Source: Hydrolagus colliei
Lineage: Eukaryota
Assembly: GCA_035084275.1 (NCBI GenBank)
Contig: CM068745.1
Location: 54,560,001 to 54,624,000, forward strand
Length of the DNA: 64,000 nucleotides
Direction of reading: 5' to 3'
Made by a program: the position numbers and the translations under genes. This document shows positions 1,351 to 62,606 of the stretch, piece by piece (position 1 is the stretch's first letter; each line of letters begins with the position of its first letter). Under the pieces are notes generated by a model. The model was given only the letters and a program-made list of their open reading frames with translations, was not told the DNA's origin and ran no database searches.

Positions 1351-2148
1351 TAACTTTTTTTCGGGACTTTCTTAAGTTGAGGTTGTCAATTTGCCAATTG
1401 TGTGACTCTCAGCTGATTTGTAAAACAGATGTTACAGTTAATGGAACAAATTTAGTTTGTGAAAATTAAATTTTTGTTCCTATTTTTGACAGTGGTGAGA
1501 ATGATAAATATTGCATGTTTTATAATTTTAGTGGCAAACAGTGCAAATCCATTGCAATACTGTACATCTGTGTTTTCAAGATAAGCTTTCATTTAACATA
1601 CATTTTTAACATACCTTTAAGAATATCAAGATGGAGACGCCAAAGAAAATCTAATGCTATTTTACCATCCCTTTCAGCATGTGTAATGTTTGCAAAGCTG
1701 GAAAGACATGAGGTAGAAGGTTGTTGCTGTACAAGTTTTTCAGCTACTGTATCTCTCTCCTACTGGTGAAATATAAAGCAGGGTTTAAATGGAATTGTTT
1801 AACCAGCAGCAAGGTGAAACTGCAAATACATGGTGTTGGATGCAGACCTGATATGACAGTGGAATCGGTCATTGCTCAATTCTGTGCTTTCGCATTGTGG
1901 AGGGCAATAGGAATGACTAAAAATCGCCACCCAGCTGTCCTTTACTGTATAAACTAGGGAACGGCGATATATCGGTATATCGCTAAAACCCGATATGATT
2001 TTCATATCGGTATGCCGATATAGACATTTTGAAAATACCGATATATCGAAAAACGATATATCGAGGTAAAAAATCGGCATGCGAGCACAATCAACTACAA
2101 GACCCAGAATGCTCATCTCTATACACAATGCACAGACCGAGGTGCAAA

Positions 2149-2160
2149 GCCGCCATCTTG
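2149..2160 (-). promoter_or_regulatory. YY1-consensus motif within the hAT element
   Basis: GCCGCCATCTTG (= CAAGATGGCGGC on minus); the other long copies have CAATATGGCGGC; motif match only, function untested. Confidence 0.35.
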
Positions 2161-2197
2161 TATTCATAGTCCTCGGATACAATATACAGGTATGCAA

Positions 2198-3200
2198 GGG
2201 GTGGGGGGAGAGAGACGGCTGTGGGTGGGGGGGGGGGGGGGTGAGGGGAAGAGAGACTGCTGGGGGGGGGGTGAGGGGGAGAGAGACGGCTGGGGGGAGG
2301 GGGAGATAGACGGCTGTGGGGGGAGGGGGGGAGAGGGGGAGAGAGACGGCTGGGGGGGGGAGAGGGGGAGAGAGACGGCTGGGGGGAGGGGGAGATAGAC
2401 GGCTGGGGGGGGGAGGGGGGGAGAGGGGGAGAGAGACGGCTGGGGGGGGGGAGAGGGGGAGAGAGACGGCTGGGGGGGGAGGAGAGGGGGAGAGACGGCT
2501 GGGGAGGGGGAGAGAGACGGCTAGGGGGGAGGGAGAGGGGGAGAGAGACGGCTGGGGGGAGGGAGAGGGGGAGAGAGACGGCTGTGGGGGAGAGGGGGAG
2601 AGAGATGGCTGGGGGGGAGAGGGGGAGAGAGATGGCTGGGGGGGAGAGGGGGAGAGAGATGGCTGGGGGGGAGAGGGGGAGAGAGACGGCTTGGTGGGAG
2701 AGAGGGGGAGAGAGACGGCTGGGGGGGGGAGGAGAGGGGGAGAGAGACGGCTGGGGGGAGGGGGAGAGAGACGGCTGGGGGGGGAGGGAGAGAGAGACGG
2801 TGAGTGGGGGAGGAGAGGGGGAGAGAGACGGCTGGTGGGGGGGAAGAGAGGGGGAGAGAGACGGCTAGGGGGAGGGGGAGAGAAATGGCTGTGGGGGGAG
2901 GGAGAGAGAGACGGCGGGGGGGGGGGGGGGAGGAGAGGGGGAGAGAGACGGCTGGGGGGATGGGGAGAGAGACGGCTGGGGGGGGAGGGAGAGAAAGACG
3001 GCGAGGGGGGAGGAGAGGGGGAGAGAGATGGCTGGGGGGAGGGGGAGAGAGACGGCTGGGGGGGGAGGGAGAGAGAGACGGCGGGGGGGTGGGGGGAGGG
3101 AGAAAGAGACGGCTGGGGGGGTGGTCGGGGAGAGAGACGACGGGGGTGGGGGGTGCGAGAGAGGGACGGCGGGGGGGTGGGGGGGGGGGAGAGACGGGGT
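2198..3200. repeat. G-rich minisatellite inside hAT copy 1 (unit approx GGGGGAGAGAGACGGCTG(n), 22-30 bp)
   Basis: dozens of tandem units with variable G-runs; equivalent arrays in copies 2, 3, 4 and 5. Confidence 0.95.
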
Positions 3201-3396
3201 GGATGTGATAATATACAGATAGATAGAGATGGGGGGATGTGAGAGAGGAGAGAGGGAGAGAGACATAGAGAGACACAGACTGAAAAACACAGAGATAGAG
3301 AGAGTGAGAGACACAGAGAGAGAAAGATATTTACCTCCTGAGAAGATAGGCCCCGAATGCGCGCGCACCCGGAATGCGCGCGCACTCCGATGCGCG

Positions 3397-3408
3397 TGCG
3401 CATGCGCA
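3397..3408. promoter_or_regulatory. NRF1-consensus palindrome within the hAT element
   Basis: TGCGCATGCGCA; TGCGCATGCG is retained in copies 2-5; motif match only. Confidence 0.35.
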
Positions 3409-4580
3409 GTACGAAAATATCGGTATTTCGGTATATCTCGATATGAGCCAACCGATATATCCATATCCGGAAAATTCCCATATCGCCGTTCCCTAGTATA
3501 AACCATTTTTGTTTTGGAGATTGCCCCTGTCAAGCTCAATTGAGTCATGAAACAGTTTAGCCCTACACAAGTCAACCAAAGTAGAATCACCCTACTTGAC
3601 TGTAGTGCTGTGGGTTCTATTTCTCCTTCACATTTATAACATGCTGCAAACGAACACAGCCAGTGCAGGCTTCTGAGCCGTGCCATTGCTCAGAAGTATG
3701 CAAACGTATTTGTTGGACTGTAGTGTAAGGTTAGCACCCATTAGTTTCAGTATCATGACATTTGTGATTTAGTTTGCAGTATTTCTTGATACAGAAATTA
3801 ATCGAGTAGAGACTTCTGATAACTGAATATATATTACGTTGGGCAACGTGAATTCTGCTTCAATAAAATCAACTACCAAAGCGGAAGTTATCATACACAA
3901 TGAACGACAACCTACATTTATATAGGTGGTGTTTAATGAAAATTTAATACAATGGAAACTTTCTTTCAAGGTTCATGCTTGTGAAGCAGTCTAGGATTCT
4001 CCATTGGTGTAAGAGAGTGAGTGAGTTGGCAGATAGTTTACTGTTCAGTAGAAGCCATGGTGTGATGGTTCTTCCTCTGCTTACTCACTCTTGCTCCTTT
4101 ATGCTTCATGATACAAGGCACATCTTGTAGTTCCACAAATCCTCTTTATAATTCAGTGCACTTGAAAGATTCCTGCTGTTTCCAAAATGTCTGTGGGGCA
4201 TTTGCAGTTTCAAATAGTGGCCTGATTTGCCCGAGTTGTTTTGGAAGAAGTTTGTATGTAGTATGTCTGCACCTCATTAGGTTGTAAAAAAACTGCCACA
4301 AATTCAAGTACTGAGACGAAGTAACAATTATGAAGTTCAAGAAATTAGTACAATAATGATTATAGAGGTCAAGCACTCCATTTTTCTGACTTCCCTGGAG
4401 AAGTAGCTTCTTTTGGTGTCTTTCCTGTTAGAGTTGTGCAATGAAGAGGAGATACGTGTTGACTCGCAATACACAATTCCCTTCAATTACACTATGTGTA
4501 CCTCAACAAAGCAATATGGTTTTCAAAAAGCAGTTCCCATAAATGTTATTTAAAATATAAACTAGACCTACATGTCTCTC

Positions 4581-9285: not shown

Positions 9286-9841
9286 TGTAGTCCATTCAGA
9301 AATGTGTTTTTCACGTTTTGATGGAACCATAAATAATAATGAATAATCATTCCATTTGATATAAGGCCTAATCACATCTTTGAGACATTTCAAAGAGCTT
9401 CATAGAATATATTGTAAAGTAAGTGTATGACTGTATATTTTGTTGACAGGCAATTAGTGTACAACAGTATCCCAAAACATACTCCAATGATAGGAAAAGG
9501 TGTCGATTTCACCTACAGGAAAGAAGAAAGGGAGGGAGAATATTGAAAGAAGAAAAAACACATTTTGTGCAGATTCGTATAATTTCACAGCATTTGATAA
9601 AAGTAATTTGTATATCATGAGCAGAACCTTGGGATTCCCTCATAATTTGATAGGCCTGCATGGCTACAGGCTGAGCATGTTAAGGTACTATTATAGTCTC
9701 AAAAGATACTATGGTCTCAAAAGAGCACTTTGTCATCAAACAATATAATTGTTTTTATAAATTGATATTATTGTTGAATAGTGAGGCTGGTAAGGTGGTA
9801 AGTGAGGACCAAGGGGACACTATCACGGACCCGTGAAAAGG

Positions 9842-10426
9842 TCTATTCAACACATCATCCATAGAAACTTCCATCACCTGCAATGTGACCCATCCACCAA
9901 GGATATATTTCTCTCCCCTCCCTTCTCCGCATTCCGAAGGGACCGTTCCCTCCGGGATTCTCTGGTCCACTCTGCTGTCAGCACCATCAGCTGCTCTCCT
10001 TCCTCTGGCACCTTCCCGTGCCAGTGCAGGAGATGTAATACCTGCCCTTTCACCTCCACCCAAACCACTCTCCAGTGGCCAAAACACAGCTTCCATGTGA
10101 GACAGTGGTTCACATGTACTACCACCAATGTAATATACTGCATCCGCTGCTCACGGTGTGGTCTCCTCTACATTGGGGAGACTAAGCGCAGATTGGGAGA
10201 CCGATTTGCAGAGCATCTTCGCTCTGTACGGTAGGTCAATCCTGATCTTCCAGTTTCCCTCCATTTCAACTTGCACTCACATTCAGAGGCTGATCTTTCG
10301 ATCCATGGTCGCCTGCGCTGTTCCAGTGACCCACAGCGAAAGCTTGACGAACAGCACCTCATCTATCTACTAGTGACACTATAGCCGTCTGGCCTCAACA
10401 TTGATTTCAGCCATTTCAGCCCATAG
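9842..10426 (+). pseudogene. Penelope ORF C-terminus: linker Zn-finger + GIY-YIG endonuclease, disrupted by in-frame stops
   Basis: FPCQCRRCNTCPF...VIYCIRCSRCGLLYIGETKRRLGDRFAEHLRSVR*, continuing in frame VNPDLPVSLHFN...RKLDEQHLIYLLVTL*PSGLNIDFSHFSP*. Confidence 0.9.
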
Positions 10427-12171: not shown

Positions 12172-13002
12172 TAGGGTCCGTCGATATGGAAATTTTCTGA
12201 TTTAGATATATCGATGGGCTCATATGGAGATATACCGAAATATCGATATTTTGGGGGTTTTCGTACTGCGCATGCGTAGTGCATTCGGAGTGCGCGCGCA
12301 TTCGGGGTGCGCACGCGTTCCGGGTGCGCGCGCATTCGGGGCCTATCTCCTCAGGAGGTAAATATATTTCTCTCTGTGTCTCTGACTTTCTCCATCTCTG
12401 TGTTTTTGTCCCCCCCCCCCCCCGCCACCGTCCCTCTCTCCTCCCGCCGCCGTCCCTCTCTCGCACCCCCCACCCCAGTCGTCTCTCTCCCCCCACCATT
12501 CCCCCAGCCGTCTCTTTCCCCCTCCCCCCCCACCGTCTCTCTCTCCCTCCCACCCCCCCAGCCGTCTCTCTCCCCCCCACCAAGCCGTCTCTCTCCCAAC
12601 CCCCTAGCCGTCTCTCTCCCACCCCCCCCAGCCGTCTCTCTCCCCATCCCCCCAGCCGTCTCTCTCCCCCTCCCCCCAACCGTCTCTCTCCCCCTCCCCC
12701 CAGCCGATTCTCTCCCCCTCCCCCAGCTGTCTCTCTCCCCCTCACGCCCCCCCCCCGCCCCACCCCTTGCATACCTGTATATTGTATTCTAGGACTATGA
12801 ATACAATATGGCGGCTTTGCACCTCGGTCTGTGCATTGTGTATAGAGATGAGCATTCTGGGTCTTGTAGTTCAGTGTGAGCGCATTCTGATATTTTACCT
12901 CGATATATCGACTTTTCGATATATCGATATTTTTCAAATGCCTATATCGGCGTATCGATATGAAAATTATATCGGGTTTTAGTGATATATTGCCGGACCC
13001 TA
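12172..13002 (+). mobile_element. non-autonomous hAT, copy 2 (TIR subtype B), 831 bp
   Basis: TAGGGTCCGTCGATAT ... ATATTGCCGGACCCTA; perfect TSD GTTCATTG (12164-12171 and 13003-13010); shorter minisatellite. Confidence 0.95.
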
Positions 13003-26946: not shown

Positions 26947-28415
26947 TAGGGAATGGCAATATGGGAATTTCCCGATATGGATATATCGGTTGGCTCATAT
27001 CGACATATACCGATCTATCGATATTTTTGTTTTTTTCGTACTGCGCATGCGCGCGCGCATCGGAGTGCGCGCGCATTCCGGGTGAGCGCGCACTCGGGGC
27101 CTATCTTCTCAGGAGGTAAATATCTTTCTCTCTCTGTGTCTCTCACTCTCTCCATCTCTGTGTTTTTCTGTCTGTGTGTCTGTGTGTCTCTCTCCCTCTC
27201 TCCTCTCTCACATCCCCCCCCATCTCTACCTATCTGTATATTATCACATCCACCCCGTCTCTCTCCCCCCCCCCCCTCTCTCGCACCCCCCACCCCCGTT
27301 GTCTCTCTCCCCACCCCCCCCCAGCCGTCTCTTTCTCCCTCCCCCCCCAGCCGTCTCTCTCACACCCCCAACCGTCTTTCTCCCCCCAGCTGTCTCTCTC
27401 CCCCTCCCCCCAGCCGTCTCTCTCCCCCTCGCCCCAGCCGTCTCTCTCCCCCTCCCTCCAGCCGTCTCTTTCCTCCTCTCCTCCCCCCCCCAGCCGTATC
27501 TCTCCCCCTCTCCTCCCCCCCCAAGCCGTCTCTCTCCCCCTCTCCCCCCCCCAGCCGTCTCTCTCCCCCTCTCCCCCCCCCCAGCCGTCTCTCTCCCCCT
27601 CAACCCCCCCCAGCCGTCTCTCTCCCCCTCTCCTCCCCCCCCCAGCCGTCTCTCTCCCCCTCACCCCCCCAGCTGTCACTCTCCCCCTCACCCCCCCCCC
27701 CCAGCTGTCTCTCTCCCCCTCACCCCCCCCAGCAGTCTCTCTCCCCCTCTCCTCCCCCCCCACAGCCGTCTCTCTCCCCCTCTCCCCTCCCCCCAGCGGT
27801 CTCTCTCCCCCTCACCCCCCCCAGCCGTCTCTCTCCCCCTCACCCCCCCCCAGTGGTCTCTCTCCCCCTCACCCCCCACCCCCCCCAGCTGTCTCTCTTC
27901 CCCTCAACCCCCCCCCCCAGCAGTCTCTCTCCCCCTCACCCCCCCCCCCCAGCCGTCTCTCTCCCCCTCACCCCCCCCAGCAGTCTCTCTCCCCCTCACC
28001 CCTCCCCCCCAGCCATCTCTCTCCCCCTCACCCCCAACCCCCCCCCCCCCCCCCCCAGCCGTATCTCTCCCCCTCTCCTCCCCCCAGCCGTCTATCTCCC
28101 CTCACCACCCCCCCAGCTGTCTCTCACCCCCTCACCCTCCCACCCCCAGCCGTCTCTCTCACCCCCCAGCCCTTGCATACCTGTATATTGTATTCGAGGA
28201 CTGTGAATACAATATGGCGGCTTTGCACCTCGGTCTGTGCATTGTGTATAGAGATGAGCATTCTGGGTCTTGTAGTTCAGTGTGCTCGCATCCCGATTTT
28301 TTACCTCGATATACCGTTTTTCGATATATCGATATTTTTTAAACGTCTATATCGGCATATCGATATGAAAATCATATCGGGTTTCAGCGATATATCGACA
28401 TATCGCCGTTCCCTA
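26947..28415 (+). mobile_element. non-autonomous hAT, copy 3 (TIR subtype A), 1469 bp
   Basis: TAGGGAATGGCAATAT (CpG-decayed) ... ATATCGCCGTTCCCTA; perfect TSD TATCATAC (26939-26946 and 28416-28423). Confidence 0.95.
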
Positions 28416-28852
28416 TATCATACATGGGAAATTATACCCTAATATTCCAAGTACATACAGGAGAGGCACAGAGGGTTCATTTTTGTTGTATTTCTGTCTG
28501 GAATTTTGTAATTAAGAATCCTTAGAAATCTGTGTGTCTCTGACTTGTGAGAATGTTCCAACTGTATTTTTAGAGCAGTGAATCCCTTAAATTTGTTGAC
28601 TCACTTTGGTTGCTGGAAAGAGTCCATTTTTTGATCTGTTTATTAAGAAATACTATCAAGTAGTACCACAATATGGAACTCATAGAATAAACTAAGCACA
28701 GTTCAACAGCCATTTACACATCAAATCGACAGCCAGAGAGCAAGGCCTCAATTTTCTGCCATATTAATATCTTGGAGTGGTGTGCTTTTTAAAAATATAT
28801 ATATTCTTTATGAACCATTCAGCAAAACTGCACTAATATTCAAATCGCCATT

Positions 28853-30352
28853 TTGAACTTGATTCTATTTGTTCACTGCGCTACTATGTGGACATTATAG
28901 AAGAAAAATAAATGTATGTCATGTGTTACGAATGGCTGTGAGCAATAAATCATAAATGTTATCTTCCCAGACATTAATACGAGTCAATGCCATTACTAAC
29001 TGTTTTGATTTACCACTGGTCTGCTTATAGTGTAGAATTGCTCTATCCTGGAAGTGTAGGACATTCAACTCCAGTGCTGAGTGGCCAGTAGGGTCCGTCG
29101 ATATGGAAATTTTTCGATTAAATATATTGAAGGGCTCATATCGAGATATACCGAAATATCGATATTTTGGGGTTTTCGAACTGCGCATGCGCGTTCCGGG
29201 TGCGCGCGCATTCCAGGTGCGCGCGCTTTCGGCGCCTACCTCCTCAGGAGGTAAATATCTTTCTCTCTCTGTGTCTCTCACTCTCTCCATCTCTGTGTTT
29301 TTCTGTCTGTGTGTCTCTGTGTCTCTCTCCCTCTCTCCTCTCTCACATCCCCCCCATCTCTATCTATCTGTATATTATCACATCCACCCCGTCTCTCCCA
29401 CCCACCCCCCCGCCGTCCCTCTCTCGCACCCCCCACCCCCGTCGTCTCTCTCCCCCACCACCCCGCCAGCCGTCTCTTTCTCCCTCCCCCACGCCGTCTC
29501 TCTCCCCCCCCCCCCCTCCCCCCCTCCCCCCCTCCCCCCAGCTGTCTCTCTCCCCCTCTCCTCCCCACCACCCAGCCATCTCTCTCCCCCCCCCCCCGCC
29601 GTCTCTCTCCCCCTCCCCCCAGCCGTCTCTCTCTCCCCCCCAGCCATCTCTCTCCCCCTCCCCCCAGCCGTCCCTCTCCCCCCAGCTGTCTCTCTCCCCC
29701 TCTCCTCCCCCCCCAGCCGTCTCTCTCCCCCTTCCCTCAGCCGTCCCTCTCCCCATCTCCTCCCCCCACAGCCATCCCTCTCCCCCTCCCCCCAGCCGTC
29801 TCTCTCCCCCTCCCCCCAGCCGCCTCTCTCCCCCTCCCCCCAGCCGCCTCTCTCCCCCTCTCCCCCTTTCCCCCCCCCCCAGCCATCTCTCTCCCCCTCC
29901 CCCCTGCCGTCTCTCTCCCCCTCACCACCCCACCCCCAGCCATCTCTTCCCCCCCCCCCCCCCCCCTCACCCCTTGCATACCTGTATATTGTATTCGGGG
30001 ACTATGAATACAATATGGCGGCTTTGCACCTCGGTCTGTGCATTGTGTATCGAGATGAGCATTCTGGGTCTTGCAGTTCGGTGTGCTCGCATCCCGATTT
30101 TTCCCCTCGATATATAGATTTTTCGATATATCGATATTTTTGAAATGTCTATATCGGCTTATCGATATGAAAATTATATCGGGTTTTAGCGATATATCGA
30201 TATATCGCCGGACCCTACTGGCCAGCTTTGCATGGTATAAAAGGTGTTGCTGATATCACTTCATGGAGGAAGTGGGGTCAGAGGTATTTCTTGAACTTGA
30301 TTCTATTTGTTCATTGCAATATTATGTGGACATCACAAAGGAAAAATAAATG
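28853..30352 (+). repeat. pair of diverged 62-bp direct repeats (28853-28914 and 30291-30352)
   Basis: ttgaacttgattctatttgttcaYtgc...tatgtggacat...gaaaaataaatg occurs twice. Confidence 0.85.
29089..30217 (+). mobile_element. non-autonomous hAT, copy 4 (TIR subtype B), 1129 bp
   Basis: TAGGGTCCGTCGATAT ... ATATCGCCGGACCCTA; TSD GTGGCCAG / CTGGCCAG (7 of 8). Confidence 0.95.
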
Positions 30353-41600: not shown

Positions 41601-42758
41601 AAATAAATCAGTAAATCAATAAATCAATAGATCAATAAATGATGTTGACTTTCTACAAGACTATCAATGGCAGATTGCAATAAGGAGGTGGGGTCCCCCT
41701 AAATCCCAATTGAAATACTTTTGTGCACATCTGTTCAGAAGAACCAGTGAAGATTTCAAGCTACTTAAAATTCTTTTTTTAATTTACACAATAATTTTAG
41801 AAAGATTACCAAAAGCATGTCATAATCTTGTTGTGTAAGCATAATGATGTTTGGTAATAATTCTGAAGCATTCTGCAACATGTTACGTGTGACACAGGGC
41901 TTCTTCTTTATTATGTCTACCATGGAGTGTGCTTCACAGTTCCAGAAAACATAACGTGCCTTTTGTAGTTGTATTCATTTTCCATTGCACAATCACTCAG
42001 TGCTTGTAGTGCTCAGGGCTGCAATGACAAATTAGTGCAGATAAATGTGGAATTAGAGAGCAACTTGGCACTGTGAACACAAATTCATTGCTTTCAGCAT
42101 TCTTAGGAACTGTCAGAGAGAGGAGAGCATCATCTCCTTGTCTGCACGGCAAGGTGACAGGATGGAGTTTTAATTGTGTCACCCACTTGGCCCAAAGTTA
42201 ACTCATTTTCCAAATGGCAGCCCTGCATCTCAGGAGCTCCAGCCAAGGGCCACAACTAATGTAAAATGAGGATGATTAACGAATGAGCAACATTGATGGT
42301 GTAAAATAGATCAGCGGTCCATTATTGTCAAGTCAAGACCTAATCCATATGATGCATTAATGAAGTAACATATGAAGGAAACAATTCCACATAATCCAGT
42401 GCCTTTTTCAACCGAGCATTTGTTGCTGATAGAAAGCAGATAATATTGAACTGCATATTAAGAAAATAAAACTGAAAGCGGTAAAGATCACTGGGCTTAA
42501 CAAAATACATATTTTTAACAAGGTTTAATGTTTTATTTCATTTGTGTTGTCTATGATCTCTGGATATACATTTTTCATATTTTCAATACTTAGATCACAA
42601 AAAGATTTGAATCAAACGTTCGAAGGATGGAGCTCATCACTTCGCCAACACTGAAATGTGATAGATATATATTTTAGCATAGCCGTTATCTTAAATTTGA
42701 CTCATTAGCTACCATTATATCATCTGCGTAGAACCAAAGTAGAGGGTTAAAAAGAAGG

Positions 42759-45075
42759 TGTCCTGACACCTTCAAAGAGTCATTAACACAAATCCCCAGG
42801 TCTCTCTGTTCCCTCACACTCCTTAAAATTGTGCTATTTAACCTACATTGCCTCCCCTCATTTCTTCTCCCAAAATGTATCACCTCACACTTCTCTGCAT
42901 TAAACTTCATCTGCCGTGTGTCTGCCCACTTTACCATTTTATCTATATCTTGTTGCAGATGGTTACTATCCTCCTCACTATTTACTATTCTCCCTAACTT
43001 AGTATCATCTGCAAACTTGGAAACTGTGCTCCCTGCACTGAAGTCCAGATCATTAATATATATTAAAAAGAGCAGTGGCCCCAATACCGATCCCTGAGGG
43101 ACGCCACTGCACACTTCCCTCCAGTCTGAAAAACAGTCGCTCACCACAACTCGCTGCTTTCTGTCTCACAGCCAGTTGTGGATCCAGGCTGCCACTGTCA
43201 CTTTAATGCCGTGGGCCTCTACTTTCTTAAAAATCCTCTTATGCGGCACTTTGTCAATACCTTTTGAAAGTCCATATAAACTACATCAACTGCGCTAAAC
43301 TCGTCCACCCATTCCATTACCTCATTGAAAAATTCTATCAGATTTGTAAGGCAAGATTTGCCTATAACAAATCCATGCTGGCTGTCCTTTATTAGCCTAT
43401 ATCCTTCTAAGTGAAGATCTATCTTGTCCCTGATTGTAGACTCTAGAAGTTTGCCCACTACCAACGTTAGACTGACTGGCCTGCAGTTCCCAGGTTTGTC
43501 CTTCTCCCCTTTTTATACAGGGGCGTAACATTAGCAACCTTCCAGTCCTCTGGCACCACCCCTGTGTCCAAGGAAGATTGAAAGATCGTAGCCAGGGTCT
43601 CTGCTATTTGCTCCCGTACTTCCCTTAGTAACCTAGGATGCATCCCATCTGGACTGTGACCTATCTACCTTGAGCGCCATCAACCTTTTTAGTACTTCCT
43701 ATCTATTGATACTAATCCTATCCATTTCTTCTACCCTCTCCTCCAATACTGTAGCATTGGCTGCATCCTCTTCTCTTGTGAAGACAGAGGCAAAGTACAC
43801 ATTCAGCCATACTGTCCGCCTCCACAATAAGATTTCCTCCTTGACCCCTAATTGGCCCCACCGTACCCTTGACCACTATTTTTACTCTTAATATGTATGT
43901 AAAATACCTTAGGGTTCCCTTTAATGTTACCTGCTAATTGTTTCTCATGCAGTCTTTTTGCCCCTCTAATTTCCTTTTTCAGTTCTCTCCTGCATTTCCT
44001 ATATTCTGCTTGGTTGACCTCTGTATCTTGGGCCTGGCACTTGTCATAAGCCTCCTTTTTTTGCTTTATTTTAACCCAAATTGCCCTAGTCATTCAGGTA
44101 GGTTTGAATGCTCTACATTTTATCTTTGTTGGAATGTTTTTGACCTGTGCCCGAACTATCTTTGCCTTGAAGACTGCCCACTGCTTGTTAGCTGTTTTAC
44201 CTGCCAATCGTTCTTTCCAGTCCACCAGAACGGCTAGGTCCCGTTTTAACTCACTGAAATTAGCCTTCTTCAAGTTGAGTGTCTTCTCCTTTGAGTATTC
44301 CTTATCCCTTTCCATAATTACTCTGAATCTATTTATATTGTGATCACTATTTCCTAGGTGCTCACCTACAGAAACCTTGCCCACCCCATTCCCCAAAACT
44401 AGATCCAGCACTGCTTCCTTCCTTGCTGGACTGGAAACATACTTATCAAGAAAGTTGTCCTGTACACATTTCAGGAATTCTTCTCCTTCCTTGCCCTTTA
44501 CACTACTATTCTGCCAGTCGATGTTGGGAAAATTAAAGTCTCCCATTATCACTACTCATTGGCTTTGCATCTTTCCGAAATCCGCTTACAGATTTGCTCT
44601 TCTATCTCTTTCCCACTATTTGGTGGTCACTAGTATACCCCTAACAGTGTAACTGCTCATTTTTTATTCCTTATCTGTAACCAGATAGCTTCGGTTTTTT
44701 GGCCTTCTTTCACCTTGTTTCTTTCTAAGGCTGTAACTGAGTCTTTAACTAATATTGCCACTCCGCCTCCTTTTCTCCCCCTTCTCTATCCCACCCGAAT
44801 ACATTATAGCCAGGAATGTTGAGTTCCCATTCTTGCCCTTGTTTGAGCCAGGTCCCTGTTACTGCTACCACATCATATCCCCTTGCAGCAAGTAGAGCCT
44901 ACAGCTCACCAATTTTATTTGTCAAACTCCATGCATTTACATACATGCACTCCAAGACAGAATTCACCTGTTCTGTACTTTTCTCCTGTCCTACCCCTCT
45001 CCTCGTCCCCTGTCTTACCTCTCCCATAACTGAACTACTGTTTGCATTCCCATTCCCCCTCAAAATTAGTTTTAA
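42759..45075 (-). mobile_element. CR1 LINE, decayed ORF2 (APE endonuclease + RT), 3' end missing
   Basis: CMYVNAWSLTNK (APE start, about 44950), IMGDFNFPNIDW, LGNSDHN, QHGFVIGKSCLTNLIEFF, GVPQGSVLGPLLFLIYINDLD, SKFADDTKLG; multiple stops and frameshifts. Confidence 0.95.
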
Positions 45076-57631: not shown

Positions 57632-57945
57632 TAGGATCCGGCGATATATCGATATAACGGTTATATCCGATATAATTTCATATCGATATGTCATTTCCGG
57701 CGATATATCAGTATATATCGGTATAATGCAGACTTTTCCAACTTACCTTGTCAATATCTGAATGTGCGTGCACCCCGGAATACGCGTGCATATGCGCAGG
57801 ACAAAAAAAAACCGCGATATCGATATATTGATATATTGAAAATGTTGATATATCGATATATGTCAATATATCGCGATCTCGATATATCGGTAAATATCGA
57901 TATGGGCAGACCGATATATCGATTTCGGAAAATTTCCAGACCCTA
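57632..57945 (-). mobile_element. hAT copy 6, 314-bp short derivative without minisatellite (B-like)
   Basis: TAGGATCCGGCGATAT ... CCAGACCCTA; TSD CTGTCTGC / CTATCTGC (7 of 8); dense CGATAT repeats. Confidence 0.85.
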
Positions 57946-59254: not shown

Positions 59255-59672
59255 CAATAATCCTTCATAATGCTTGCATTTGGTATAGTGTCTTTCATGT
59301 TCGGAGGACATCCCAAAGCGCTTCACAGGATTTACTGTGAAGTGAAGTGACTATTTGTGAACAAACTTTGCATCCATTGCACACAGCAATGTCCCACAAA
59401 GATCAATGAAGTGAATGACCATTATAAATAATTGTTTGGAGGGATTGTTGGTCACAATCCTGGGAGAACCAGAATTCCCTTCACTTTTGAATAATGCCAT
59501 GGGATCTTGACATCTACTTGTAAAGACAAATGGACCTTGGTTTAACATCTCATCCGAAAGATTGCATTATCGACAATGCAACGACATTTGAATGTCATCA
59601 TAGACAATGTGGGTTCAAGTTGAACCCACGACCTTTTGGCTCAAAGGCAAGAGTGCTGCCACTGAGCCAGGT
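59255..59672 (-). mobile_element. SINE family B (DeuSINE-like), near full length
   Basis: tail ggacatcccaaagcgcttcacag, gcacacagcaatgtcccacaaa, gccatgggatctt, gaacccacgaccttttggctcaaaggcaagagtgct. Confidence 0.8.
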
Positions 59673-60707
59673 TGAAGCACAATTGCCTCAAGGGTGAAGG
59701 GAACTATTTATTGTTTCAATGACAGAAGGCACCGGGATGACATTGGATTCCAGGATTATAACCTGATGTTCATATGCTGTTGCCAGAAATAGCCAGTTAC
59801 CAATAAAGCAGAGAATCCCACAGAGAAAACAAACTGACTGTTCCAGGTTATTCAAATGGCGAGGGTTGAGAACTGCAGATTCAACTTGGTTCATGAAGCT
59901 GTTTGCTGTAGATAATTATTAATGAGTCATTTGGTGCTAATGAGACAACACTTTTGGTGTCAATATGTTGCAACTTCAACAAGTGCCAAATTCAAGACGA
60001 CTTGTTGATTAAAATCTTTACATGGATTAATTATTTTCTGAATTTACCAAAAGCTTGAATCATTCAAATATTTAAAGATGTTACAGATTACATTTCCCCA
60101 ATCCTTTTACAAGTGTAAAATTTGAATAGCATCAAAAAGTCCTATCTGCCGAAAAGCATCTGTGAATTTCTAATGGTACATTTTATAAAGTAAATTTAGA
60201 GATTGGGACCATGAAATACTTTCAATCCACAGATTTAAATTTGGTTATGCTGTATTTTTCTCATTGTTTCCAGTATGAGTTTATTGTTGCATCGGTTTGA
60301 TACAGCATACAACATAAATCTGGTACCAAGCCAAATATAGTAGTTCAGACTTTAAAAACGCAGTGAAGCTGCTTTTCCGTGAACTACAATTTCAATGCAG
60401 AGATCCATGGGGTAGTGCAGGTACTCATAGCTATTCTACTCAAGTTTGCAGGTCGTTCTGACAGCTTAATGGTTGCTGCAAAACAGATTCAAGTGCAACT
60501 ATTTGAAAAAAAGTTTGAGTTGAGTTGGGTTGAGTCATGACCAACATTGCTGGGGAAATTTCCAAGCGTGGAATGTTCCATGATTAATTAAAGATGTGAT
60601 AATTAATTATCATATACAATAAAACAAAAATAATCACCCTAATAATATAGTGTCTTTGGGATGTTCGGGAGTTCATCCCAAAGCACTTCAAAGTACTTGC
60701 TGGGCAC

Positions 60708-61849
60708 TAGGGAACGGCGATATGGGAATTTCCCGATATGTATATATCGGTTGGATCATATCGAGATATACCGAAATATCGATATTTTCCGTTTTTTTGT
60801 ACTGCGCATGCGCTCGCGCAGCGGAGTGCACGCGCATTTCGGGTGCACGCGCATTCGGGGCCTATCTTCTCAGGAGGTAAATATATTTCTCTCTCTGTGT
60901 CTCTCACTCTCTCCATCTCTGTGTTTTTCTGTCTGTGTCTCTCTATGTCTCTCTACCTCTCTCCTCTCTCACATTCCCCCCCATCTCTATCTATCTGTAT
61001 ATTATCACATCCACCCTGTCACTCCCCCCCCCCCCCCCCCCGCCGTCCCTCTCTCGCACCCCCCCCCCCGGCGTCTCTCTCTCCCTCCCCCCCCAGCCGT
61101 CACTCTCCCCCTCCCCCCAGCCGTCTCTCTCCCCCTCTCCTCCCTCCCCCTGCCAACTCTCTCCACCCCCCCCAGCCGTCTCTCTCCCCCTCTCCCCCCC
61201 CCCCAGCCGTCTCTCTCCCCCTCTCCCCCCCCTCGAGCCGTCTCTCTCCCCCTCTCCCCCCCAGCCATCTCTCTTCCCCTCTCCCCCCCCCAGCCGTCTC
61301 TCTCCCCCTCTCCCCCCCCCCAGCCGTCTCTCTCCCCCTCTCCCCCCAGCCGTCTCTCTCCCCCTCTCCCCCCCCCAGCCGTCTCTCTCCCCCTCCCCCC
61401 AGCCATCTCTCTCCCCCTCTCCTCCTCCCCCCAGCCGTCTCTCTCCCCCTCTCCTCCCCCCCCCAGCCATCTCTCTCCCCCTCTCCTCCTCCCCCCAGCC
61501 GTCTCTCTCCCCCTCACCCCCCCCCCCACAGCCGTCTCTCTCCCCTTCACCCCCCCCAGCAGTCTCTCTCCCCCTCACCCCCCACCCACAGCAGTCTGTC
61601 TTCCCCCACCCCTTGCATACCTGTATATTGTATTCTAGGACTATGAATACAATATGGCGGCTTTGCACCTCGGTCTGTGTATAGAGATGAGCATTCTGGG
61701 TCTTGTAGTTCAGTGTGTGCGCATTCCGATTTTTTCCCTCGATATATCGATTTTTCGATATCTCGATATTTGTTAAATGCCTATATCGGCATATCGCTAT
61801 GAAAATTATATTGGGATTTAGCGATATATCGATATATCGCCGGACCCTA
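60708..61849 (+). mobile_element. non-autonomous hAT, copy 5: chimeric A-left/B-right, 1142 bp, no TSD
   Basis: left TAGGGAACGGCGATAT, right ATATCGCCGGACCCTA; flanks CTGGGCAC and GTGAATAT do not match. Confidence 0.9.
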
Positions 61850-62312
61850 GTGAATATGATAGAAGCTACACAGCAGTGTCATTTGATCCATAACGTGCAA
61901 GAAAAAGCAGCAAAAACATGGTGACAAAATTGCAATTAAATAATTAGATCCCATTGTCAATATAGATAAAAGGTGTTTTAGGATTACCCTACATTAGGCA
62001 CTTAACTTGTCATTACCAAGGAATGAACAAAATTATGCCCACCTATTAAGAACTAAAAGACATGTTGATTATTTAAGGAAAGTTAAACAATGGATGATTT
62101 CTTCATATCAGGTGTATAAGGGTTGATTTTAGACTGAGGGAATTACTCAAGTATTCATCTGTCAAGGATAAATGAGCATTTTTCAAACGTGATTAGTAGA
62201 TCACACACATAACTGAATGCAGAGAATCAAATTAAACAAAATATTCTGAAATTGGATAAGAAGAAAGAGAAGAGGGATTTTGAGCAAAGAGGAAAATATA
62301 CAACATTTGTAA

Positions 62313-62606
62313 AATAATAACAATCTTTGAATTTGACATAGTGCTTTTCACATCTTCCAGATGTCTCAAAGTGCTTCACAGGATATACTCTTAAAGTGAT
62401 TGACTGTATATGTGTGGGTGAAAAGCAGCAGCCAATTGCGCACAGCAATGTCCTACAAACAGTCATGTATTGAAATGACTAATTTTGTTATTGTTTTGAG
62501 GGATTATTATCATACTGATGTGTGGAGTAAGGAAACTTGCCCACAGTTTCATCCTGACCTGCCAGGAATCAAACCCAGGTCTCTCGCTTGCGAAGCAAGT
62601 ACTCTA
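62313..62606 (-). mobile_element. SINE family A, full length
   Basis: aatctttgaatttgacatagtgc ... tactctaatcgctgagctacaggtctc. Confidence 0.85.

Follow-up and report, generated by a model that had tools for sequence, protein, structure and literature searches.

The stretch of DNA we analyzed, called the window throughout, is 64,000 nucleotides long (G000:C6:54,560,001-54,624,000) and comes from an assembly of 1,003 Mb in 532 contigs. A single non-autonomous element, which has TAGGG termini and comes in two subtypes, A and B, is present in it five times. In four of the copies the two ends agree in subtype and the target-site duplication (TSD) is retained: a subtype-A copy at 1955-3495 on the minus strand, a subtype-B copy at 12172-13002 and a subtype-A copy at 26947-28415, all three with exact TSDs, and a subtype-B copy at 29089-30217 whose TSD has one mismatch (GTGGCCAG/CTGGCCAG). 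The fifth is the subject of this article. It spans 60708-61849 (1,142 bp), is itself non-autonomous, begins with TAGGGAACGGCGATATGGGAATTTCCCG and ends with CGCCGGACCCTA; its left end is subtype A and its right end is subtype B. The octamers that flank it, CTGGGCAC at 60700-60707 and GTGAATAT at 61850-61857, mismatch at five of eight positions, and by this comparison the copy has no TSD.

Read along the plus strand, the chimeric copy opens with a subtype-A left TIR, a left arm and a CT-rich block in the TTTCCCG variant that we call A2 (60708-61017), continues with a C-rich minisatellite (61018-61607), a tandem array that is A-type through its last unit, and closes with a subtype-B right arm and right TIR (61636-61849). 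Its left flank holds, also on the plus strand, the remnant of an interspersed repeat that we take to be SINE-like (60646-60703; 81% match to window 59284-59337). We tried the right flank as a continuation of this repeat and rejected it, the local alignment score being 23 against 65 for the left flank. Copies of a very abundant SINE-like repeat lie at 62320-62600 and 59270-59480 (summed depth runs to millions at 62321-62574). Other residents of the window are a short related element on the minus strand at 57632-57940, with TAGGATCCGG/TAGGGTC-type ends, flanks CTGTCTGC/CTATCTGC and no minisatellite; a broken LINE remnant at 42689-44555 (minus strand) with RVT_1 and endonuclease matches; and a weak GIY-YIG match at 9806-10231 (plus strand). 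On the same contig, at G000:C6:54,527,176-54,535,090 and 54,542,814-54,544,707, two elements in opposite orientation sit 5 kb apart and have the TSD GTGGAGTG in common. Near this pair, three element ends border on a single octamer, as would result from two copies inserting head to head at one target.

The family and its target sites

Exact ends of the family are plentiful: the A left 24-mer occurs at least 1,331 times genome-wide and the B right 27-mer at least 2,376 times, with none for the reversed controls. We paired the two ends of 198 copies, a sample made up of most of the first 100 listed places for each end (all on contig C1) together with flank-directed loci, and biased to exact ends. 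These counts leave out the ends that were partnerless in the stretch fetched, ten of the exact A left type and 11 of the exact B right type; one of them (L021) had a TSD, and some may belong to truncated copies or to copies with a scar. Of the 198 paired copies, 190 keep a TSD with no more than two mismatches, namely 88/89 with two A ends, 96/101 with two B ends, 6/6 with an ambiguous TIR and neither of the two A/B hybrids, which are our chimeric copy and L068. Among the other paired copies, none of the 85 with an exact A left end has a B right end and none of the 91 with an exact B right end has an A left end; hybrids make up less than about 3.5% of copies (rule of three, chimeric copy excluded).

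TSD mismatches among the 198 are distributed in two groups: none in 155 copies, one in 32, two in three, three in none and four to seven in eight. Because the counts are bimodal in this way, with 190 copies at 0-2 mismatches and eight at 4-7, decay of a TSD is not the cause of the mismatched flanks at the chimeric copy. We had considered decay as the reason for the differing octamers and discarded it on a second ground too, five mismatches being the mode for unrelated true TSDs.

Of the 155 perfect TSDs, 129 carry T at position 2 and 123 carry A at position 7, in agreement with nTnnnnAn, the TSD consensus given for Ac-type hAT elements in PMC8961557. The target consensus that we derived from them is [G/C]T-n4-A[C/G], and the two octamers of the chimeric copy fit it at 4/4 (CTGGGCAC) and 3/4 (GTGAATAT) positions. 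The 8-bp TSD of the hAT superfamily, Ac type, is found across the family (190/198, 0-2 mismatches) and not at the chimera. In its 8-bp TSD, its short TIRs and its related 2-kb elements with a BED finger, the family resembles the non-autonomous hAT elements of the Ac type.

The ~2-kb elements, which have an A-type TIR and a different interior (L083, L098, L099 and G000:C6:54,527,176-54,529,137), are a lead to the autonomous partner. All three frames tested from L083, L098 and L099 carry a BED finger (zf-BED, PF02892), and neither a catalytic nor a dimerization domain was reported in these three frames. No full transposase was recovered, and it is the TSD pattern that places the family, provisionally, with the Ac type.

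Six same-subtype copies on contig C1 have no TSD (L134, L175, L178, L195, L211 and L225). L225 possibly has a TSD with an indel; L134 is target-like on both flanks and is a candidate A/A scar; L178, L195 and L211 show a good target fit in the left flank only. Three apparent TSD-less B/B copies were set aside, being really pairings with an internal TIR-like repeat.

The subtype switch and the locus in relatives

Diagnostic sites were defined on copies of at least 600 bp, 66 A1 and 21 A2 (87 A) and 80 B. The left arm of the chimeric copy has the A allele at all nine strongly diagnostic sites, at 60713-60752, and differs by 5.5% from the A2 majority and by 12.6% from B. The right arm has B-majority alleles at 61653, 61711, 61713, 61719, 61807 and 61843-44, and lies 4.2% from the B majority, 7.6% from A2 and 8.9% from A1. 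Counting against a clean B reading of the right arm, some of its B-like alleles also occur in 4-6 of the 21 A2 copies, and so the cleanest right markers are the TIR dinucleotide (0/21 A2) and the G at 61719 (0/21 A2, 47/80 B).

Between the arms the A signal runs on a long way. A motif at 60939 is present in 59/88 A copies and 2/96 B copies, and CACCCACAG, at 61583 in the last array unit, in 66/88 A copies and 0/96 B copies. With C runs compressed, every discriminating 14-mer in 60930-61602 is A-enriched (within the array, those at 61022-61602), and from 61623 on every one is B-enriched. The last strong A marker ends at 61591; the first B markers are a T at 61636 (1/76 A, 16/64 B) and a T at 61653 (8/76 A, 62/64 B). 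Given CACCCACAG on one side and these two markers on the other, there is a single in-register switch at 61592-61635 on the plus strand (outer bound 61652), about 44 bp that take in the end of the array and a block common to both subtypes. As a recombination deletion would leave it, this is a single chimeric element joining two distinguishable copies in register.

A sequence-only reading of the window had described most of this: a chimera with A on the left and B on the right, borne out by the 9/9 left sites and the right-arm alleles; flanking octamers that differ and each fit the Ac-type target pattern; and TSDs at the other window copies, which are indeed there (three exact, the fourth with one mismatch). 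Where it went astray was in naming the inside of the minisatellite as the probable place of the switch, the array being A-type to its last unit.

The region is present in twelve runs from six studies, and of these we examined X1, X5, X6, X8, X10 and X12, omitting X2-X4, X7, X9 and X11. X1 and X12 are from organism A and from two studies; X1 may be the very sample that was assembled. In each, one contig crosses the left junction and reaches 60732 within the element, and another, starting inside the element at 61832, crosses the right junction; their depths (22 and 23.6; 36 and 37, respectively) are those of unique contigs nearby. The chimeric allele appears homozygous in both samples. No contig or read spans the whole copy.

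The relatives tell a different story. Their flanks are about 2% diverged (42 letters over ~1.9 kb in five X5 contigs), and the left site carries no insertion in X5 (organism B), X6 or X8: CTGGGCAC is present once, alignment runs to 60707, and then come the same 30 letters in all three, at the start of loose ends of 215 letters (X5), 88 (X6) and 49 (X8). X5 has a depth of 60; X6 and X8 belong to one study and have a depth below 6. Alignment also ends at 60707 in X10 (organism C), with four letters over. The continuation past 60707 differs from the present right flank, and the 30 letters have no match with up to three mismatches anywhere in the 1,003 Mb of the assembly (as distinct from the organism A reads). 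A search with the left-flank DNA matched only its own locus. On the right, an X5 contig corresponding to 61824-62202 carries the element end together with its flank; it has 10 differing letters, two of them unlocated, and its TIR subtype is thus not directly read.

The relatives also speak to the age of the subtypes. Measured roughly, from summed contig depth, the non-A allele at 60750 accounts for 282,112 of 283,427 in X5 (99.5%) and 29,677 of 29,696 in X10 (99.9%), as against 59% (X12) and 71% (X1) in organism A. Subtype A is nearly absent from the relatives, and the difference points to its having spread later than the split.

Origin of the chimeric copy

The chimera consists of the left 0.9 kb of a subtype-A insertion and the right 0.2 kb of a subtype-B insertion. 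It has no TSD, each flank is the target of a separate insertion, and a relative has, at the orthologous locus, additional DNA not present here. We therefore consider it highly likely that a young A copy and an older B copy in the same orientation underwent homology-directed recombination, which deleted everything between them. Three observations support such a deletion: the empty left site in the relatives, the absence from this assembly of what follows it there and the lack of hybrids with a TSD. The sequence-only reading had likewise proposed that an A and a B copy fused with loss of the intervening DNA, and what it looked to as evidence has turned out in its favor, with both hybrids among the 198 paired copies TSD-less, no transposing hybrid subfamily seen and, in relatives, at least 215 other letters after the left site instead of a contiguous right flank.

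The order of events would be as follows. The B copy would already have been in place at GTGAATAT when the lineage split from that of organism B, and the A copy would have come after the split, at CTGGGCAC, upstream and in the same orientation. A break between or within the two copies would then have led to repair in the shared block at the minisatellite end, through single-strand annealing or unequal crossover; template switching is a further possible route, and the data fit all three alike. We take SSA and NAHR to be the labels for such recombination. Removed in the process would have been the right arm and second TSD copy of A, the intervening DNA, and the left TSD copy, left arm and array of B. 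From shared flanks across separate contigs we infer that the relatives' left loose end is continuous with the right element; the DNA lost from between the copies would come to about 185 bp or more, a lower bound reached by taking off the 215 loose letters as many as 30 that may already belong to a repeat. The precursor arrangement that this predicts exists, unrecombined, in the window itself: an intact A copy and, 673 bp further on, an intact B copy that is oriented alike (26947-30217, plus strand). Since its formation the chimeric copy has probably not moved.

On C6, no partner end with either octamer lies within 2 Mb among the matches listed (100 of 538 and 100 of 564). Of five candidates followed up, the two nearest near-matches and three exact-octamer matches elsewhere, four have their own TSD, and the fifth, at C6:56.63 Mb with an octamer one mismatch off, showed no right end.

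Could the assembler have made the chimera, by merging an intact A copy, the DNA after it and an intact B copy? The sequence-only reading had offered collapse as its alternative, and the missing spanning contig is one part of the argument that still stands; a collapse would also be expected to leave the 30-mer out of the assembly, and about one-fifth of sampled words are missing from the organism A runs (shares 0.76-0.80). Yet the switch falls in some 44 bp at the end of the array and not in its interior, the arms differ by ~8-13% between subtypes, the window is without N, assembly contigs reach 90-156 Mb, the same assembly has matching TSDs on 190/198 copies, and both outer junctions stand in two organism A samples. 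On this evidence we judge collapse very improbable. Even less credence goes to a deletion driven by transposase, in which the left end of B would have attacked CTGGGCAC and the left 0.9 kb would later have been converted from a distant A copy. Such a history also yields two different target-like octamers and a loss of intervening DNA, and one-sided losses do occur in the family, given six same-subtype copies without a TSD, three of which fit the target on one flank. It demands two events, however, with a conversion tract over TIR, arm and the whole array, where one crossover suffices.

A single inversion or translocation breakpoint between two copies would have left a reciprocal hybrid elsewhere, and chimeric DNA transposons with exchanged TSDs are known from inversion breakpoints, as PMC2775673 describes. 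The assembly lacks the DNA that should follow the reciprocal end, though, and no reciprocal partner is among the matches listed (100 of 538 and 100 of 564), so this origin seems to us scarcely plausible. Least credible of all is a transposing subfamily with A on the left and B on the right, one member of which lost its TSD here through a local deletion. The B-like right-arm alleles in A2 copies do mean that the subtypes have exchanged sequence or share ancestry. But no other paired copy with an exact A left end (0/85) or exact B right end (0/91) is a hybrid, neither hybrid has a TSD, and the two ends differ in age, organism B having the right junction but an unoccupied left site. A hybrid subfamily is largely refuted.

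Recombination between the A and B insertions, the likely origin, makes the locus a well-supported new case of a known process, ordinary recombination-mediated deletion between transposable elements. PMC2041999 reports 663 Alu recombination-mediated deletion (ARMD) events in the chimpanzee, in which one chimeric element is left; crossovers fall in windows of 1-116 bp (mean 20 bp), and deletions measure 111-31,861 bp (median 615 bp). As there described, ARMD resembles our case in having one chimeric element in place of two in the sister species, in being recognized by cross-species comparison and TSD structure, and in its short shared crossover window (~44 bp here). The differences are that the recombining copies here belong to a non-autonomous hAT DNA transposon, with a minisatellite inside it, and not to a SINE, that the left copy arrived after the split, so that the relative shows an empty site and not two elements, and that our deletion size is bounded from below only. 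Galileo at the Drosophila buzzatii inversion 2z3 offers another likeness, in ectopic recombination, chimeric copies and non-matching TSDs; according to PMC2775673 its copies were inverted and gave an inversion with two reciprocal chimeras, whereas here the copies are direct, one chimera remains and DNA was lost. PMC4423477 reports on annealing-type repair at DNA-transposon sites and adds little here. The family is not described in the papers found by our literature search, which is no proof that the case is unpublished.

Consequences and the nanos pair

The locus is a clean, polarized example of how recombination between copies of a non-autonomous DNA transposon removes DNA: relatives give the order of insertion, and the crossover is mapped to ~44 bp. 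Scars of this kind can be counted, and the DNA removed by the family is therefore measurable (at least 1,331 A left ends and 2,376 B right ends; 8/198 paired copies TSD-less). Taken alone, the chimeric site leaves known biology as it was, and we found no gene that it affects. A Pfam scan of 597 stop-to-stop frames over 284 kb, in which short exons would escape and of which the outer 200 kb were covered by unmasked frames of at least 78 aa, turned up no host gene. Matches above or near the cut-off are of transposon type only (RVT_1, endonuclease, GIY-YIG, Myb/SANT); the few others are weak and sub-threshold.

The relatives' 30 letters resemble a 3' splice site, with a branch point, a pyrimidine run and CAG. 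Splice-acceptor-like strings are common in AT-rich DNA. We considered the loss of an exon with the deletion and rejected it, no host gene having appeared in the 284 kb (where, again, short exons would escape). A bolder idea is that subtype A, spreading in a lineage-specific burst through a genome that already contained B, made the family a rearrangement engine, reshaping genes within ~2% divergence through deletions and reciprocal-type events alike. The lost segment, with its splice-acceptor-like start, may on that idea have held an exon, and a hybrid beside a tandem nanos pair would be the reciprocal-type event. We regard this as speculative and rather unlikely.

The nanos pair itself merits more attention than the site of the chimeric copy. 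At G000:C1:36,412,500-36,419,750 (L092:4569 to L093:1730) lies a 2.5-kb tandem duplicate, 96% identical, with two intact nanos frames (zf-nanos). The first nanos copy is preceded by an A element with the TSD CTGGACAC and the second by a hybrid with B on the left and A on the right, the right flank of which is also CTGGACAC; the B copy expected downstream is missing. To judge from the sequence, the pair may have arisen by unequal crossover or conversion between older paralogs. The duplicates differ at 6 of 1,499 sites in the first 1.5 kb, and their 3' tails diverge; over 225 aligned codons there are 13 amino acid-changing differences and three silent ones.
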